DNA of 64,000 bases, taken from sequence record MF327008; one strand, 5' to 3'. Positions within the stretch are counted from its first letter, which is position 1. Every line of letters starts with the position of its first letter. A program made the translations under genes and the position numbers. This DNA comes from Shigella phage Sf24. Shown one piece after another: positions 35,031 to 44,166 of the stretch. The notes under the pieces were generated by a model. That model ran no database searches and had not been told where the DNA came from. It was given only the letters and a program-made list of their open reading frames with translations.

Positions 35031-35351
35031 TTATAGCGTAATCCATTCTCGTACTGTCTGAGTTACTACACGTTCACGGGGCTCGACTAGTTCAACAGTC
35101 GGAACTGCATAATACCAGTCAGAATGATAAGAACCTGAGCGAGTTTCATTTACGGAAACATGTACATTGTGTTTTGGACTAAAATAAACACACTGACGAT
35201 ATTGGCATTTACCATCTTGCACCCAGTCTTCTATTTCGATAGGTTTAAGATAATCCGAAAAATCGAAATCATAATTTTCTGAAAATGCATCATGGTCTTC
35301 GATGATTTCACTCAGAACTGCATCAACATCTAATTTATTTTCAATATTCAT
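35031..35351 (-). CDS. hypothetical protein (106 aa)
   Basis: Track ORF. Confidence 0.5.
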   Translation of the reverse strand: MNIENKLDVDAVLSEIIEDHDAFSENYDFDFSDYLKPIEIEDWVQDGKCQYRQCVYFSPKHNVHVSVNETRSGSYHSDWYYAVPTVELVEPRERVVTQTVREWITL

Positions 35352-35361
35352 TTTTCACCAA

Positions 35362-35571
35362 TTAATTTCGCAATTTATTAAGTTCTTCATAATCAATCCA
35401 TGATTCTAGTCCTGATGGCAAATCAGATTCAATTTCCCAAAGAAGTTCTTCAATTTTCTGAAGACGATCTAGTTCTTCAGCAGGAATAGTAACCATTGAC
35501 GGAGTTCTTGATACGCTAATATCGTAAATCATATTTACCCCAGTTTGACCATACAATCGCCGTATTTCCAT
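35362..35571 (-). CDS. hypothetical protein (69 aa)
   Basis: Track ORF. Confidence 0.45.
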   Translation of the reverse strand: MEIRRLYGQTGVNMIYDISVSRTPSMVTIPAEELDRLQKIEELLWEIESDLPSGLESWIDYEELNKLRN

Positions 35572-36256: not shown

Positions 36257-36646
36257 TTAATCCAAAATATTATTAGGCATTGGTTGAACACTCACAAGTT
36301 CTTTAAAGAACTCAGTAGAGTCAGGCAATTTAACCATTTCCGGAGCATGCTTACTGAATTTATGTTTACATTGACGGCATTTATATTCAAGCTCTGGTTT
36401 ACGCCAGTTAATCAATTGAACTTGTTCAGTACCGCATTCAGGGCAATTAGGAACGTTTTTAGAAGCTCTTTCACGTCGTTCAACCATAGCCATAATAGCA
36501 TCCCATGCTGGAGGTTTAAAATCTAAATCGTCGCAGCCGTGAATCTTTCCACGCATTTCCATATCATCTTCCTCACCAGCCATAATAATTTTAATTAGAC
36601 TGGAATTACTTGAAGCTGCAATGTCTTCTAATAGACGCTTTTTCAT
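36257..36646 (-). CDS. hypothetical Zn-ribbon protein (129 aa)
   Basis: CPECGTEQ...CRQCKHKF. Confidence 0.55.
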
Positions 36647-37572
36647 TTCAATACCTCAATAGCATTGCGTAAACCATTTGCTTTTGCATTAAGAGCTTTT
36701 AACAATTTGGTGTGTTCTGCAATTTGGGCTTCAACTTCAATCAAACGGGCATTGAGATATTCACGTTCTTCACTCAGATTATCAACCTTTTCTACTTTAG
36801 GCTCTTTTACAACTGTCTTATATGTATTAGGGTTCTTCAGTTTAATTAGAATGCGTGAACTGTATAACATTGAACCATTATCTTCGGTTTCGTCATACAT
36901 TTCCACTACGTCCATAATTTTTAACATCATGCGGAGTTTATAAGACAACGAACGAATAGTTTTGTTGTGCTTATTAATTTCTTTAGCTGTCATGGTGCCA
37001 AGATTACGTGAGTAATAATAAGGAACCTGGATATTAATTAATACTGATGAACCACCTGGCTTGTGTGTTACTTCATCAGCAATAACCCAGTCCTTAACAT
37101 GAACTGTATTTGTACGGTCATCGCCCGCGGTAAATAGTTTGCGAGCATGCTTAAAAAGCATATTCACTTGGTCATTGAATTGACAAGCAAATTTATCAGC
37201 AAATTTAGTTTCAGGAATGGTAGATAACCAATCAGCCAAATGGGTCTTTTTAACATCGTTAACAATAGTAAATTCAACCAAATCAGTTATAGATGTCGCA
37301 GATTTAATGAAGCTCGGCTTCATAAAGTTTTTAATGTTATCACGAGCTACAGTAGAAGATAACATACGAGAACGTTTAAACCATTCAAGCAAATTGCCTA
37401 ACGAATGAGAATAAGCGTTTTGAGTATCTTTACAGATATGATTTTCCTGACCAACATATTGAAGGAAATCACGAAGAATATTATTGATTACTGCTCTGTG
37501 TCCTATCTGATAATTACGATGTTTAGTAATAAGACTGTCAAAATAATCAATATAATGTTTACGAGTTTTCAT
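36643..37572 (-). CDS. hypothetical protein (309 aa) with C-terminal coiled coil
   Basis: Track ORF; one of four tandem similarly built ORFs. Confidence 0.6.
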   Translation of the reverse strand: MKTRKHYIDYFDSLITKHRNYQIGHRAVINNILRDFLQYVGQENHICKDTQNAYSHSLGNLLEWFKRSRMLSSTVARDNIKNFMKPSFIKSATSITDLVEFTIVNDVKKTHLADWLSTIPETKFADKFACQFNDQVNMLFKHARKLFTAGDDRTNTVHVKDWVIADEVTHKPGGSSVLINIQVPYYYSRNLGTMTAKEINKHNKTIRSLSYKLRMMLKIMDVVEMYDETEDNGSMLYSSRILIKLKNPNTYKTVVKEPKVEKVDNLSEEREYLNARLIEVEAQIAEHTKLLKALNAKANGLRNAIEVLK

Positions 37573-37624
37573 GTTCTTCTCACTTGGTTAATGATTTATG
37601 CTCCGAGCCATCCTTGGCTTTAAA

Positions 37625-38626
37625 TTACTTAATTAACTGTAAAGCTTGTTCAAGACGATCCAAGCGATTGACAGATTCTTCCCAAATCTTTTTAGCCTGC
37701 TCATATTCTTTCTGCGCTTTATTAGAAATTTCTAGAACTTCTTTATAAGCTTTTTCTAATGCAATAACTTCTGGACGAATTTCTATCGGTTCAGGTGAAT
37801 CATCAAGACATTCCATTAGTTCCTCAAGAGTAGTTTCTTCTTTAGGAGTATTCACAATTTCCTCACATTTTTGTTGATAAATTTCTTTATCAGTAGGTGA
37901 ATAAGCACATTTCACTTCACGAAGACTAATTACAATTTTATATCCTTCCCATCCGCATATATTCTTAAAAGGATATGTATGAATATTTTCTACTGTTTCC
38001 ATACAAAGTAATGCAGTCTCTAACTGACGAGTTATAGTGCTAGCAATTGAGAAAAATTTATTAATATTCTTTTGGTTAGCGTTTGGTGTAAAAAATCCAT
38101 AATTCACAAAAATAGCTACTTTATTTTCATCAAGCTCATATTCTTTTACGATAATCATATCAGAAGCCAAAGGATGAATTTGACGATAATCGCCATAACA
38201 TAATTTAGAAGCTGATTTTAGAATTTGTCCTTTGAAAAGTCTGAAATTACTAATCCAACGACGAGTAAAAATATTCTCAGGGTCTTCTTTATTATTAAGA
38301 TGATAAGAATTAACATCACCGAACCAATTATATCCTACTACATCTTTGGTTCGTTTAATTTCTTTCCCAAAATTACCAAGAATATCCCGATTAACCAAAT
38401 ATGAAAGAAGACGAGACTCTTTAAAGGTTTTCTTGATATTATCTTTATCTACACGGCTAGAAATTTTACGAATTTCATGAATAAATTTAGTAGAAGAAAC
38501 AATACTTGCATCAACACTATTGAGCCATTGATTGATAATAGAAATCACACTATTCTGACTAGACATAGGTTTAACTTTATCATCAATAACGCTATTGAAT
38601 GATTTGATATATTCGTTACGAGTCAT
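37625..38626 (-). CDS. hypothetical protein (333 aa) with C-terminal coiled coil
   Basis: Track ORF 37625-38677 trimmed to ATG 38624-26 (GAGGAGA SD) downstream of early promoter. Confidence 0.6.
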   Translation of the reverse strand: MTRNEYIKSFNSVIDDKVKPMSSQNSVISIINQWLNSVDASIVSSTKFIHEIRKISSRVDKDNIKKTFKESRLLSYLVNRDILGNFGKEIKRTKDVVGYNWFGDVNSYHLNNKEDPENIFTRRWISNFRLFKGQILKSASKLCYGDYRQIHPLASDMIIVKEYELDENKVAIFVNYGFFTPNANQKNINKFFSIASTITRQLETALLCMETVENIHTYPFKNICGWEGYKIVISLREVKCAYSPTDKEIYQQKCEEIVNTPKEETTLEELMECLDDSPEPIEIRPEVIALEKAYKEVLEISNKAQKEYEQAKKIWEESVNRLDRLEQALQLIK

Positions 38627-38654
38627 ATTAATCTCCTCAGTAGAAAGTAAGAAC

Positions 38655-38684
38655 ATTATACCACATCCTTGTGGCAAAGTAAAC
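38655..38684 (-). promoter_or_regulatory. early promoter
   Basis: GTTTAC-N18-TATAAT. Confidence 0.7.
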
Positions 38685-39709
38685 TAGTTTAGTGCATTTA
38701 GTGCATTGTTCAGTTTAGAACGTTGCTTCGTAAGATTTTTGACTTTTTCTTGAGCTTTTTCTAGCATCTTTTCAGCTTCTAACACTTCATTGGTCGCTTT
38801 AACGAGTTCATCATCTACTGCCTTGATAGACTTCTCAATCGCATCGGCATGCCATTTTTCAACAGGTTTAAGACTCGGATTTTCAACAGGAAGAAAATTC
38901 ACTTTATTGAATTTCCATGCATCTTTATTACCTGAACTATACATCCAAAATTTAGGATCGTTTGATGAGTAATTGGATAAATTTAAATTTAAGTTATCTT
39001 GCACTTCTTGCTTTTTCTCTTGCGTGACTTCGTCCTTTCTCAAAAAATCGTATTTAAATGAAACGATCATATCAAGTTCATATGTTGTTGTGTCTAATTT
39101 AAATCGTTCGAAATGCTGTGAAATCTTAGACTGAACAGCAGCAACAACATCCATATACTTAAATGCTTCTGTCAACTGCGATTTAAGACATTCGCAAATT
39201 GAAAGAGAATTTTTTGTATTAGGTTTAAAGCTAATTCGTGCAGTTCTATTATTTTCTTTTAATGGTCTTACTTCCATCTGAAGAGTATAACCATCAAATT
39301 TCAGGTTCTTTAAGTTAATATCAGAACCTTTTAATCGACTCGCAGTTGATAAAATTTGCTTTAATTGTCTACGGAATAGAGCAATAAATCTCCATTCAAT
39401 ACGATAATGATTTGGATTGAAAAATCCAGATGATAAATCGACCTTACTTTGACCAACGCCTTGAACAAATAGAGGATTTTTATAATCAATAGTTTTACAG
39501 AAATCGGTGAGCTGCTCACGAGCAGTCATTTGTGTAATATACCCCGCTTTACTAAAATGACGTAACCATTCACTGCTATTCATATATTTAAAGTGAATAT
39601 CACGATTAACTTTATCAGGGTCTAAATTATTTTGGCACAAAAATGTCATAACATCACGAGTATAGCTGGCATTACGAACCATATCTTCAATTTGAGAACG
39701 AGTTTTCAT
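38684..39709 (-). CDS. hypothetical protein (341 aa) with C-terminal coiled coil
   Basis: Track ORF. Confidence 0.6.
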   Translation of the reverse strand: MKTRSQIEDMVRNASYTRDVMTFLCQNNLDPDKVNRDIHFKYMNSSEWLRHFSKAGYITQMTAREQLTDFCKTIDYKNPLFVQGVGQSKVDLSSGFFNPNHYRIEWRFIALFRRQLKQILSTASRLKGSDINLKNLKFDGYTLQMEVRPLKENNRTARISFKPNTKNSLSICECLKSQLTEAFKYMDVVAAVQSKISQHFERFKLDTTTYELDMIVSFKYDFLRKDEVTQEKKQEVQDNLNLNLSNYSSNDPKFWMYSSGNKDAWKFNKVNFLPVENPSLKPVEKWHADAIEKSIKAVDDELVKATNEVLEAEKMLEKAQEKVKNLTKQRSKLNNALNALN

Positions 39710-39717
39710 GGTGTTCC

Positions 39718-40626
39718 TTAAGATTTAAGTAAATCAACAATTTTAATTAACTTTTCACGCTCGGATTTAGCTTTACTACTCAGTCCAGATAGTCTGAAAA
39801 TTTCATCATCATATTGTTGAATAGAAATATTCAGCTCTTCAATCTGTTTATTAAAATAATCAATTTGTTCAGAATGTTTTTCGTTACTACGAACTGGTAC
39901 AGGTTTTGTAGGCAATTTAGTTGAACTGGATTCATCCGGGCGATAAATTAAAATACAACTTGAACCAATAGGGCATTTTGCACCAGATGAATATTCTAAT
40001 GTTCCAGCTTCTTTTAAAACTTCAAAAGCTAAACAGAGATGATGCCCCATATTAACATAATCTGTAGAGTGAGCTCTGACGTAATAATCATCGCCGCGAA
40101 TACTAAATTTAAAGCATTTAAGGTCTTCTGTATTATTGGTCTTAAAAATCATTTGTTTATCTAGACCTTTAGCTAATCGAGCGCCTAATGCTAATAATCG
40201 TCGTTGATTTTCCCACAAATCTGCGATCATTTGGTCAAATGATAATTTCGGCATTAGTCGACCGTAAAGATCATAGCCTTTATTATAATTGCGAAGAATT
40301 TCACTTGCATTAATACGAGACAATGCTCCAATTTTATTAAGGGCTTTCATAATGCGATTAGATAAACCCATTCCAGACCCGTTTGTTCGCTGTAAATGTT
40401 TTTCTAATCCAAATCCAATATCAACTTTAAACTTATCTAAAATTTCTGCATGAACATCTCTGTCAATAACATTCAAATCCAAAGTTGGGTTAAATCTATG
40501 AAAAAATTTATCTGGCTCTCCACGACGAAGTACAGTCCATTCATTCAATTTTTTATTAACTAAAGATTTAATTACTGCATTGACATTATTAATTACTACT
40601 GACATATTTTCCTCACTCAATTTCAA
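39718..40626 (-). CDS. hypothetical protein (302 aa) with C-terminal coiled coil
   Basis: Track ORF. Confidence 0.6.
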   Translation of the reverse strand: MKLSEENMSVVINNVNAVIKSLVNKKLNEWTVLRRGEPDKFFHRFNPTLDLNVIDRDVHAEILDKFKVDIGFGLEKHLQRTNGSGMGLSNRIMKALNKIGALSRINASEILRNYNKGYDLYGRLMPKLSFDQMIADLWENQRRLLALGARLAKGLDKQMIFKTNNTEDLKCFKFSIRGDDYYVRAHSTDYVNMGHHLCLAFEVLKEAGTLEYSSGAKCPIGSSCILIYRPDESSSTKLPTKPVPVRSNEKHSEQIDYFNKQIEELNISIQQYDDEIFRLSGLSSKAKSEREKLIKIVDLLKS

Positions 40627-41631: not shown

Positions 41632-41661
41632 ATAGTACCACAGAGGAACGGTCTTGTAAAC
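41632..41661 (-). promoter_or_regulatory. early promoter with conserved leader
   Basis: GTTTACA-N18-TACTAT then ACAACTATCAACT. Confidence 0.7.
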
Positions 41662-42067: not shown

Positions 42068-43036
42068 TTATTTCAGAAGAGTAACCTCAGCGATTTCTTC
42101 CCAACCGTTTTTGTCGGTCATAATAAAGTCAGCAAGATAAAGAGCAGTACGCAGTGAAACATTGCGTAAACGATTAACATTGACTTTCATCCATGATAAT
42201 GCTTTATAAGTTTCTTCATCAGAAAGACCGCGCTTTTGCATCATGTCAGTTGAAAGAATAACATCTTCAACCCTGACCATAATTTCTTCATTAGTGTGAA
42301 CACCCAAATCCAAATAAACTGAGCGGGACACTAATGCTTGTAAGTGTGGGGCAAGTTTAGTACCACGGTCTAATTCGCGGTCAATGTCAACGTTTGTGAT
42401 AAAAACAATCGTTCCTTTAAATTCAAACTCACGCTCAATGCCTTTTTCTTCTAAGTAAGAAGATGCAGTGCTCCAGCAGACTTTACGGGTCTCTCCAGTG
42501 TCCAGAGCAGCTTTTAGAAGATTAAGAATGTCCATATCAGAGAAAACATCCACATCATCAATCAAAAGGACAGAATTCTCTTCACGATTATTCCAAAGCT
42601 GTTCATAAAGACCAATACCAGAGATTTTACCATTAATGCTTTTATACTCAATGTATCCAATATCATTTGCTTTATTTAAAGCTTTATCTAAAGAATACGT
42701 TTTACCAATACCTGCTGCTCCCGAGATAATTAATGAACGAATGTTTCCGTTAATAATACCATTCGTCATCATTCCCATAACATTAAATCTTTTATTAATG
42801 CGGGTTTTCATATCTTCATACGATTCTTTAACTTCTTCAACTTTTACACCATCATATGAAATGTCTGATTTGTAAACCCAAACACCGCGACGTTTACCGT
42901 CAATTTCAACAAAAACTTTACCATCTCCTTGTGCATCTACCGGAGCATTATCCGGGAACCATTCGCCTAAGAGCTCAAAAGTTCCAGAGATTTCTTTACC
43001 GAAGTAGATACCCTTATTGATAGTTACAGTTTTCAT
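42068..43036 (-). CDS. P-loop ATPase (322 aa)
   Basis: Walker A GAAGIGKT, Walker B LLIDDVD; start at ATG 43034-36 with GGAGAATAAA SD. Confidence 0.65.
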   Translation of the reverse strand: MKTVTINKGIYFGKEISGTFELLGEWFPDNAPVDAQGDGKVFVEIDGKRRGVWVYKSDISYDGVKVEEVKESYEDMKTRINKRFNVMGMMTNGIINGNIRSLIISGAAGIGKTYSLDKALNKANDIGYIEYKSINGKISGIGLYEQLWNNREENSVLLIDDVDVFSDMDILNLLKAALDTGETRKVCWSTASSYLEEKGIEREFEFKGTIVFITNVDIDRELDRGTKLAPHLQALVSRSVYLDLGVHTNEEIMVRVEDVILSTDMMQKRGLSDEETYKALSWMKVNVNRLRNVSLRTALYLADFIMTDKNGWEEIAEVTLLK

Positions 43037-43070
43037 TTTATTCTCCAAATCCGTATCAGTTGATAGTTGT

Positions 43071-43100
43071 ATAGTACCACAAAGCTTTATGCTTGTAAAC
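43071..43100 (-). promoter_or_regulatory. early promoter with conserved leader (near-duplicate of 16524-16590)
   Basis: GTTTACA-N18-TACTAT then ACAACTATCAACTGATACGGATTTGGAGAATAAA-ATG. Confidence 0.7.
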
Positions 43101-43123
43101 AGTTTTGTGAAAAATTTTTGAAA

Positions 43124-43150
43124 TAAAAAAAAGGGAGCCCGAAGGCTCCC
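43124..43150 (-). terminator. intrinsic terminator after the NTase-fold gene
   Basis: GGGAGCC-UUCG-GGCUCCC followed by U8. Confidence 0.75.
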
Positions 43151-43152
43151 TA

Positions 43153-44166
43153 TCATTTATAATAACTTCGGTGGTTTTCAAGATAGACCTTCTCAAGGAA
43201 GTCATCCCAAAAACTCATGTCTACTTTTTGCTGCATACCGTTCTTAGAAGCTTCAGTAGATGCTGCTTCTACTTGATCGACCACATCTTCCAAAAACTCT
43301 TGAACCGTTTTAAATGGATGCTTACCCAACTTCACGTCGAGAATAAAGGGAGCATCTTTGAGTGGATAAATCAAGTCGCCAGTTTTGTAAATTTCCAATA
43401 GTTGAAGTCCACCACGACAAGCATGACTCAGAGCTTTCCAATCAATACCTTCATTAGCTTCGGCTTTACGAGCACGTTCACCATATTCAGCATCTAATTT
43501 GTTCAGTGACTGCTTAAGCTCAATAAGAGAAAGCGTTGTCTGATATTTACGACCCAATACAGTGTAGAACGTTTGTGGGCCTGTTTTCTTATGATTATGG
43601 AACACCCATTCACAGAATTCGTTTTCTGGAAGACGATGCTTAATATCTTCAACTTTAGTGCGACGCTGCTTAATAGAACCATCTTCTTGGTAATCAACCC
43701 ATTGCTCAGGGATTTGATTAACTACTTTCAATACATCGCGTAATGCAGCCAAACGAGAACCCTTGACACCATATTTAGAAGCTTGCTTGCGAACATATCC
43801 TAAATAGGATTTCATGTTAGTCGTATAAAAACGAGAACGGTTGTCTTGAATAAACTTCCACACATCAGGCAAATCAGATTTAACCACTAGTTCAGGTGGA
43901 GTGTGAAGCATATCCAATGCTACAGTTTCACCATCTGCTGCTAATTTAAAGAAATATTTAAGACTGTATAGTTCATGGTCAATATCATCTTTAGTGTTTT
44001 TAGATGATGTGTTATTAGTGTTTTTACTCATGTGCTCTTTGACATTTCCGATAAGAATATCACGAGCAGGAGGAACAAAAATTTCTTTAAAATCTACATC
44101 AGATTCTGGGGTAGAAGTTCCATAAAGATGACTACCAAAATAGCTTTTCATTACTGTTTTCATCAT
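43153..44166 (-). CDS. nucleotidyltransferase-fold protein (337 aa)
   Basis: FGSHLYGTSTPESDVDF fits the G[GS]x9-13DxD NTase motif; followed by hairpin terminator. Confidence 0.6.
   Translation of the reverse strand: MMKTVMKSYFGSHLYGTSTPESDVDFKEIFVPPARDILIGNVKEHMSKNTNNTSSKNTKDDIDHELYSLKYFFKLAADGETVALDMLHTPPELVVKSDLPDVWKFIQDNRSRFYTTNMKSYLGYVRKQASKYGVKGSRLAALRDVLKVVNQIPEQWVDYQEDGSIKQRRTKVEDIKHRLPENEFCEWVFHNHKKTGPQTFYTVLGRKYQTTLSLIELKQSLNKLDAEYGERARKAEANEGIDWKALSHACRGGLQLLEIYKTGDLIYPLKDAPFILDVKLGKHPFKTVQEFLEDVVDQVEAASTEASKNGMQQKVDMSFWDDFLEKVYLENHRSYYK

Follow-up and report, generated by a model that had tools for sequence, protein, structure and literature searches.

The nrdC.3-nrdC.6 genes of Shigella phage Sf24 as a probable tandem paralog family that includes the ortholog of the anti-Dsr1 gene nrdC.5 of T4

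The closest described system to the genes considered here is nrdC.5 of phage T4, which acts against the host defence protein Dsr1. A T4 clone that had lost nrdC.5 through a deletion was unable to plate on ECOR17, and deletion of dsr1 from the host restored plating (Srikant 2022, eLife; PMC9391042). Conversely, cloned dsr1 protects MG1655 from the T4 deletion mutant, and nrdC.5 alone, expressed from a plasmid, restores infection (PMC9391042). Dsr1 is a SIR2-domain (sirtuin) defence protein which is proposed to disrupt cellular nicotinamide adenine dinucleotide (NAD+), and the NAD+-rebuilding NARP pathways also counteract it, indirectly. The sensor domain of Dsr1, which is also present in Avs7, is reported to recognise, in other coliphages, the major capsid proteins (2026 Nature; PMC13581612). 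Here we describe nrdC.5 and its neighbours in Shigella phage Sf24 (record MF327008), where the window, that is the whole stretch of 64,000 nucleotides that was analysed, carries four consecutive minus-strand genes, nrdC.6, nrdC.5, nrdC.4 and nrdC.3, referred to below as genes A, B, C and D respectively. Collinear profile similarity that passed a composition control supports the placement of these genes in one superfamily, and we consider a common ancestry of all four proteins to be highly probable.

The T4 genes are not essential under laboratory conditions, as T4 lacking nrdC.5 or nrdC.1-6 is viable on laboratory E. coli and the nrdC.1-6 block is lost in a viable genome-reduced T4 (PMC9825161). 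The functional analogue of the action proposed for NrdC.5 is DSAD1 of SPbeta-like phages, a phage protein that neutralises a defence-associated sirtuin NADase. Its target DSR2 recognises the tail tube protein, whereas the Dsr1 sensor recognises the capsid protein, and structures of DSAD1 with DSR2 exist while none was found for NrdC.5. No relationship in sequence between DSAD1 and NrdC.5 was detected, although the two were not directly compared. Other known counter-defence proteins of T4 and T6 include gp49.2 (anti-OLD), whose gene is located close to nrdC.3-nrdC.6; TifA, Dmd, AdfA and IPIII are encoded elsewhere in T4. Like NrdC.5 they are non-essential, each addresses one host defence and some are clustered in variable regions, but they are single unrelated small proteins whereas the locus described here holds four tandem paralogs of 300-340 residues with a head-and-tail architecture. 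In the literature searched, nrdC.3, nrdC.4 and nrdC.6 are mentioned in connection with an RB7/RB9 polymorphism in NrdC.4 and with the nrdC.1-6 deletion block, and no functional study of the three was found. The same literature contained no mention of DUF7235, PF23882, PF26897 or an anti-Dsr1 mechanism, and a unified nrdC.3-nrdC.6 family appears to be absent from it.

Gene identities and common ancestry

The window is a segment of a Tequatrovirus (T4-like) genome. The 5.1 kb surrounding nrdC.3-nrdC.6 are matched by 742 phage records and show 97-98% identity with, for example, Kelasse and CrRp10. In the annotated T4 record, the counterparts of genes A to D have the same order and orientation. 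The four consecutive open reading frames (ORFs) reported in the initial annotation were found to be correct in their minus-strand coordinates, their C-terminal peptides and their N-termini (MKTR, MTRN and MKTRK). The program-made ORF of gene A spans 39718-40626, opens at TTG and encodes 302 residues. The likely start is instead the ATG at 40605, which gives 295 residues, because a GAGG Shine-Dalgarno sequence lies 5 nt upstream, the stop of nrdC.7 lies a few bases before it and the homologs open with MSVVINN. Gene C encodes 333 residues from an ATG preceded by GAGGAG, or 350 residues if an upstream TTG is used, and the stop of gene D overlaps the start of the nrdC.2 homolog.

Gene B is the ortholog of T4 NrdC.5. 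It matches the Pfam family DUF7235 (PF23882) over its full length (408 bits against a 30-bit gathering cutoff, E 3e-122, residues 1-341), also matches phrog_2351 and occupies the same place between nrdC.6 and nrdC.4. Genes A, C and D fall outside the DUF7235 model, with no Pfam match to it even at E up to 1, and are related to B at the profile level only. They are the orthologs of the uncharacterised T4 early ORFs NrdC.6, NrdC.4 and NrdC.3. Gene C matches phrog_1435 (E 3e-169, residues 1-333), as does gene D (E 8e-117, residues 2-309), and PF26897 is precomputed on the C homologs and also on a fusion protein with the C-terminal half of D. Gene A matches phrog_2257 (E 2.5e-153, residues 8-302 of the 302-residue ORF), and PF26899 is precomputed on all A homologs. 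Pfam and PHROGs therefore each divide the four genes into three families, and the databases keep NrdC.3/.4, NrdC.6 and DUF7235 separate where we join them.

No thioredoxin or glutaredoxin domain was detected in any of the four proteins with Pfam and NCBIfam, and none contains a CxxC motif. Many GenBank and RefSeq records nevertheless name nrdC.3-nrdC.6 (plus nrdC.7, nrdC.9 and others) 'thioredoxin', a product name which apparently spread from the locus label 'nrdC.x' and which is unsupported for these genes. Sub-threshold matches to DUF3905, PHL, Phage_int_SAM_1, XerD, SEC10/PgrA and AAA_23 in Pfam and NCBIfam were far under the cutoffs and were judged to be noise.

The initial annotation regarded the four genes as a diverged paralog family and named the lack of significant pairwise similarity as the observation that would speak against it. 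All-against-all BLASTP gave a divided answer: the C-D pair alone was significant (E 4e-8, 25% identity over 231 residues) and nothing significant was seen for the other five of the six pairs. All four proteins were joined when family profiles built from database homologs were compared by HHalign. The C-D comparison gave Prob 97.9 (E 3.7e-13). The profile of B matched that of C and D together at Prob 92, which rose to 95.5 (E 1.5e-8) after divergent B homologs had been added (VR20, exhaustive search). This alignment covers 151 collinear columns, pairing B 50-205 with C 66-228, and is located in the globular core rather than in the tail. Gene A was linked by way of family E, a single-copy family of phage PM2 and the Kanagawavirus phages, to which it matched at Prob 95.7 (E 1.1e-8); the family E profile was related more weakly to C+D and to B (Prob 63 each). 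The merged A+E profile matched the merged B+C+D profile at Prob 94.5 (E 8.3e-8) over 129 collinear columns, pairing A 67-198 with C 48-210, and a column-reversed control in which composition was kept gave no match. Furthermore, when the A+E profile was compared with 66 ORFs of the window, its best three non-self matches were D, B and C. A further PHROGs family, phrog_26858, matches both B and C weakly. An early B-D match at Prob 85 was rejected as an artefact because the B alignment contained the NrdC.5::NrdC.3 fusion P0056, and it fell to Prob 1.5 once the fusion was removed. The paralog family is thus upheld by the HHalign linkage, by synteny and by one shared structural neighbour.

The aligned cores share two motifs. 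The first lies at the end of a helix and follows the pattern A(S/R)(R/K)L..G.D, as LALGARLAKGLD in A, STASRLKGSD in B and SASKLCYGD in C; the corresponding segments are HARKLFTAGDD in D and LALGARCQFG in PM2. It is followed by a beta-hairpin and then by a helix with L..A(F/L)..M(D/E)VV. In the AlphaFold2 (AF2) model of B, the secondary structure was assigned as helices at 104-127 and 168-185 and strands at 143-149 and 155-161. The A model (predicted local distance difference test, pLDDT, 78.9) consists of a helical N-domain, a beta-beta-alpha-beta-beta unit, a disordered linker and a C-terminal helical hairpin. Both this model and the low-confidence B model (56.3) place a helix, a beta-hairpin, a helix and a C-terminal helix in the same order. 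Foldseek searches of BFVD with the A model returned uncharacterised proteins of 300-335 residues from other T4-like genera. One PM2 protein was fourth in the list for A (E 5e-7) and first in that for B (E 2.8e-3), the latter being the one match of the B model, for which BFVD gave none at E <= 0.001.

Family members were found only in T4-like phages, with 20-27% identity between genera. When 1.84 billion representatives were searched exhaustively by HMMER with the B profile, 13 matches were obtained, one of which is a spurious repetitive sequence. Mosugukvirus, Kanagawavirus and the Acinetobacter T4-like phages each have a single copy. It is present directly upstream of nrdC.2 in Pectobacterium phage PM2 and the Kanagawavirus phages, and between gp49 and nrdC.10 in the Acinetobacter phages Acj9 and KARL-1, where the tie to the family consists of fold match and position only: Acj9 is linked to the A model directly by Foldseek and KARL-1 through its BLAST relationship to Acj9, and sequence profiles left Acj9p122 and KARL-1 gp164 unlinked to any of the families (Prob at most 7). 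Gaprivervirus VR20 has three copies (NrdC.6,.5 and.4) with NrdC.3 absent, and Tequatrovirus has four. The number of records with a match in a tblastn search of the phage collection differs by gene (740 for A, 580 for B, 552 for C and 652 for D). The array would have arisen by tandem duplication of one ancestral gene, represented by the single copy at the same place in the distant T4-like phages. As a separate observation, phiC120 (H192) and vB_Eco_mar005P1 (H193) carry A-like proteins of about 300 residues with 33% identity, each being the sole A match of its record.

Three database families are here brought together in a single superfamily that has expanded in tandem and is built on a head-core-tail plan. 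This and the prediction which follows from it, an anti-defence function for NrdC.3, NrdC.4 and NrdC.6, may be new. The locus is not a new kind of system, since the genes are catalogued T4 ORFs and one of them has a published anti-defence phenotype.

Helical tails and allelic variation

For all 74 minus-strand ORFs of at least 100 residues in the window, the last 42 residues were scored for hydrophobic periodicity of 3.4-3.6 residues. The tail of C ranked 1st, B 2nd, A 4th and D 8th, and by our own arithmetic the chance that four given ORFs would all be placed among the top 8 of 74 is about 6e-5. This ranking was adopted in place of a strict heptad a/d-occupancy score, in which only the C-termini of B and D stood out (z about 3); by the strict score the A tail was not significant (z 1.1) and the best window of C was N-terminal. 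All four tails end in L..A(L/I)..L(K/N) and the same ending was observed in the distant single-copy relatives. The tail of A is near-invariant across its family (DDEIFRL ... LLK), the invariant residues of the B family concentrate in the tail, and the tail of C, which has neither proline nor glycine in its last 42 residues, is nearly identical even in homologs with 32% overall identity (P0121). Mean identity in the tail compared with the rest was 0.70 versus 0.55 in the C family and 0.63 versus 0.49 in the C+D family, and the gap was small in the A and B families. The shared C-terminal coiled-coil architecture that had been proposed for these proteins is borne out as far as heptad-like periodicity and AF2 helices of 30-58 residues are concerned. 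The tails are putative coiled coils at most, and that of A forms a hairpin in the monomer model.

The rest of the sequence is much more variable in NrdC.3, where at least three allele classes were distinguished, in which identity to the window copy is roughly 93% or higher, 75-79% and 60%, respectively. Gene D is another allele than that of T4 (61% identity) and its middle part has been replaced: residues 1-60 are about 88% identical and residues 271-309 about 77-100% identical, whereas residues 91-270 show 40-57% identity. Most of the flanking genes compared are 92-100% identical to their T4 counterparts and the exception is nrdC.2 with 77%.

A deletion of nrdC.4 was observed in P0056, found on contigs of up to 167 kb, where NrdC.5 145-273 is joined in frame to NrdC.3 129-309. 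It corresponds to window positions 36643-39277 and its junction lies at a short shared 'VN' (KFNKVN|MLFKHARK). Gene A also differs from the T4 reference (NC_000866), in which nrdC.6 has a deletion of 1 nt relative to about 39826-39832 of the window (GAGCTG-ATATT versus GAGCTGAATATT). The deletion shifts the T4 protein off the conserved C-terminal helix, so that the reference copy is without the tail that gene A keeps, while the +1 frame of T4 still encodes ISIQQYDDEIFRLSGLSSKAKSEREKLIKIVDLLKS. The cause is a mutation of the laboratory strain or an error in sequencing. Together with the copy number of one to four across T4-like genera, NrdC.3 alleles that differ by up to 40% and a deletable nrdC.1-6 block, the fusion and the frameshift agree with the hyperplastic location that the initial annotation assigned to these genes.

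Some other rearranged sequences were set aside. P0231 (173 residues; a foreign N-terminus followed by an exact B tail) was considered as a case of tail shuffling but is a probable assembly chimera, because its one source is an 803-bp metagenome contig and no phage record matches its N-terminal part. P0236 looks like a chimera and P0237 like repeat noise. The NrdC.6 of Shigella phage Sf25 (P0122, 378 residues) has about 83 residues (183-265 in the window ORF numbering) duplicated in tandem within it, and this duplication is either real or an assembly artefact.

The anti-defence reading and its alternatives

The reading that we favour, with moderate confidence, is that nrdC.3-nrdC.6 encode early anti-defence proteins that are dispensable and belong to one expanded family, in which the head varies and the helical tail is conserved. 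The initial annotation had suggested a host-range or anti-defence role for all four genes. This role is established for one member, T4 nrdC.5 acting against Dsr1, and for NrdC.3, NrdC.4 and NrdC.6 we infer it, because NrdC.5 belongs to a four-gene paralog array and its siblings thereby become specific anti-defence candidates. Gene B itself is expected to have anti-Dsr1 activity like T4 NrdC.5, given its orthology and 94% identity.

According to this proposal, each protein would consist of a fast-evolving N-terminal region that is mostly helical, a conserved core with both motifs in which a beta-hairpin stands between two helices, and a variable or disordered linker which leads into a conserved amphipathic helical tail of 45-58 residues. 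The genes would be transcribed together with the early leftward genes. NrdC.5 would be made early and, by analogy with DSAD1, may bind directly to either the sensor or the SIR2 domain of Dsr1 before the capsid protein appears. The variable head may set the target specificity. The conserved tail may assist in self-association, which would be useful against oligomeric defence proteins, or may provide contact with a common partner. NrdC.3, NrdC.4 and NrdC.6 may neutralise other defence proteins, possibly related ones, and such other targets would explain both the expansion from one gene to four and the allelic replacement of the NrdC.3 middle.

Several observations weigh against this reading or against the ancestry on which it builds. 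An experimental phenotype is available for one of the four proteins, NrdC.5, and its direct binding to Dsr1 is drawn from the analogy with DSAD1 and DSR2; no direct NrdC.5-Dsr1 interaction was found in the literature searched. No known fold or catalytic motif was found for the NrdC.3-6 proteins. With regard to ancestry, direct HHalign comparisons of A with B and of A with C+D were insignificant (Prob 0.4-5%), and A is joined to the others solely through merged profiles and the intermediate family E. The shared Foldseek neighbour is weak evidence because the B model is poor (pLDDT 56). Where similarity between families is confined to the tails, as for E-B (Prob 63-82), coiled-coil composition may have inflated it, and the tail of the A monomer model folds back as a helical hairpin rather than a canonical coiled coil.

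A bolder version, possible but in our judgement rather doubtful, holds that the four proteins are a modular inhibitor family in which the helical tail acts as an oligomerisation element or common handle and the interchangeable heads each block a different host immune sensor. Possible targets of such heads are members of the large group of defence proteins with the Avs7/Dsr1-type capsid-sensing domain.

Among the alternatives proper, the one that survives best, although we regard it as unlikely, is a general role in early host takeover or in a nucleic-acid-related process, in which the anti-Dsr1 effect would be indirect, for instance through a change in the timing or state of the trigger or in NAD+ metabolism. 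Such a role would suit the basic character of A, B and D (pI, isoelectric point, 9.2-9.4) and the weak resemblance of D residues 30-86 to the N-terminal SAM-like domain of tyrosine recombinases, which is far under the curated cutoffs. The indirect action of the NARP pathways on Dsr1 offers a precedent, and the missing report of an NrdC.5-Dsr1 interaction in the literature searched also fits. However, the genes are dispensable on laboratory hosts, and the family is narrow and fast-evolving (the 13 matches in 1.84 billion and 20-27% identity noted above), which is atypical of a conserved takeover function. In addition, Pfam and NCBIfam detected no nucleotide-binding or enzymatic motif, and the NrdC.3 middle varies like a swapped cassette.

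It is less probable still that the four proteins build one hetero-oligomeric assembly through their C-terminal helices and perform a single job instead of acting as four independent inhibitors. The adjacent and co-oriented genes, the common tail ending with its strong 3.5-residue periodicity and the place of the tails among the best-conserved segments are all consistent with such an assembly. Against it, plasmid-borne nrdC.5 alone restored plating of the T4 deletion mutant on Dsr1 cells (PMC9391042), the copy number ranges from one to four between genera with VR20 lacking NrdC.3, presence across phage records differs by gene, a natural deletion removes nrdC.4 and the NrdC.6 of the T4 reference has no tail. 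Finally, four unrelated accessory genes of similar length that independently gained amphipathic C-terminal helices and match by composition are very improbable: the insignificant BLASTP pairs (five of six), the insignificant direct HHalign comparisons of A with B, C and D and the three-family division in Pfam and PHROGs would be expected of such genes, but C-D is significant even by BLASTP, the B-CD match (Prob 95.5) spans 151 collinear core columns outside the tail, the AE-BCD match (Prob 94.5, 129 core columns) is abolished by column reversal, the top three window ORFs of the A+E profile are exactly the siblings and single-copy members are found at the same locus in other genera.

Neighbourhood and implications

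The coordinates of the genes and their parts are collected in Table 1, together with a promoter-like site in the gap between B and C. This site resembles the T4 early promoters. Since the number of such sites in the region was not above the shuffled expectation, it is treated as no more than a lead.

Table 1. Positions of the four genes, their cores and tails and a promoter-like site in the window
Feature	Position	Strand	Description
Gene A, NrdC.6 ortholog	39718..40605	(-)	295 aa; 97% identity with T4 NrdC.6 over residues 1-259
Gene B, NrdC.5 ortholog	38684..39709	(-)	341 aa; 94% identity with T4 NrdC.5
Gene C, NrdC.4 ortholog	37625..38626	(-)	333 aa; 95% identity with T4 NrdC.4
Gene D, divergent NrdC.3 allele	36643..37572	(-)	309 aa; 61% identity with T4 NrdC.3
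A core, residues 67-198	40012..40407	(-)	GALSRINASEILRNYNKG, NQRRLLALGARLAKGLD, beta-hairpin, helix HHLCLAFEVLK; merged-profile HHalign to C 48-210
B core, residues 50-205	39095..39562	(-)	ITQMTAREQLTDFCK, EWRFIALFRRQLKQILSTASRLKGSD, beta-hairpin, helix LKSQLTEAFKYMDVV; HHalign to C 66-228
C core, residues 48-210	37997..38485	(-)	SRLLSYLVNRDILGNFGK, RRWISNFRLFKGQILKSASKLCYGD, ITRQLETALLCMETV; HHalign alignments
A tail, residues 242-295	39721..39882	(-)	AF2 helices 242-271 and 276-294, pLDDT about 70-91
B tail, residues 283-341	38687..38863	(-)	single 58-residue AF2 helix 283-340, pLDDT 77-93
C tail, residues 284-333	37628..37777	(-)	RPEVIALEKAY...LEQALQLIK; periodicity rank 1 of 74
D tail, residues 265-309	36646..36780	(-)	LSEEREYLNARL...RNAIEVLK; periodicity rank 8 of 74
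Promoter-like site	38655..38683	(-)	B-C gap; TTTACT, 17 nt, TATAAT, extended -10 TG; consensus scan 10/12

Two further promoter-like sites, near-identical to each other (TTTACA, 17 nt, TACTAT), were observed at 41632-41660 and 43071-43099 on the minus strand, upstream of nrdC.8 and nrdC.10. They point to a repeated promoter-leader cassette, since the program-made ORFs read through both sites and each gives an 'LCGTIQLST' leader. The uncharacterised nrdC.10 homolog (42068-43156), an early gene found to be conserved among T4-like genera, is ATPase-like: it gave weak P-loop, AAA and STAND-NTPase-like matches (AAA_14 7e-5, nSTAND3 6e-4), all below the cutoffs.

On the other side of the array, the nrdC.2 homolog (36257-36646) encodes 129 residues compared with 104 in T4, with 77% identity, and shares a variable patch with NrdC.3. 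Its CxxC pairs are zinc-ribbon-like (Zn_ribbon_8 matched at E 6.6e-6, which is below the cutoff). The gp49.2 ortholog is located at 35031-35351, 1.3 kb downstream of gene D; the gp49.2 of T6 was reported to inhibit the OLD defence (2026; PMC13096335). An ORF of 69 residues at 35362-35571 stands at the T4 49.3 position and carries the RefSeq label 'antitoxin from a toxin-antitoxin system' in CrRp10. The stretch from gp49 to nrdC.11, with gp49.2, the 69-residue ORF, NrdC.5 and Pin, looks like an anti-defence island. In Acj9, the phage with a single candidate NrdC.3-6-like copy, a nicotinamide phosphoribosyltransferase adjoins a ribose-phosphate pyrophosphokinase according to the annotations (L005:4690-7344), which suggests a counter-defence by NAD+ salvage of the NARP type.

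NrdC.5 is the only protein counter-measure to Dsr1 named in the literature searched, and Dsr1 is widespread and poorly understood. Through the array, three anti-defence candidates are gained in the best-studied phage, and the core motifs, the variable head and the conserved tail provide a guide for dissecting the mechanism. The pattern of the array may also explain why this segment is highly variable in T-even genomes that are otherwise about 95% identical, and this variability is relevant to host-range prediction for therapeutic T4-like phages. If the heads are indeed interchangeable modules, then gene duplication, the cassette-like replacement of NrdC.3 alleles and the in-frame head-tail fusions would be the means by which T-even phages retune their host range.

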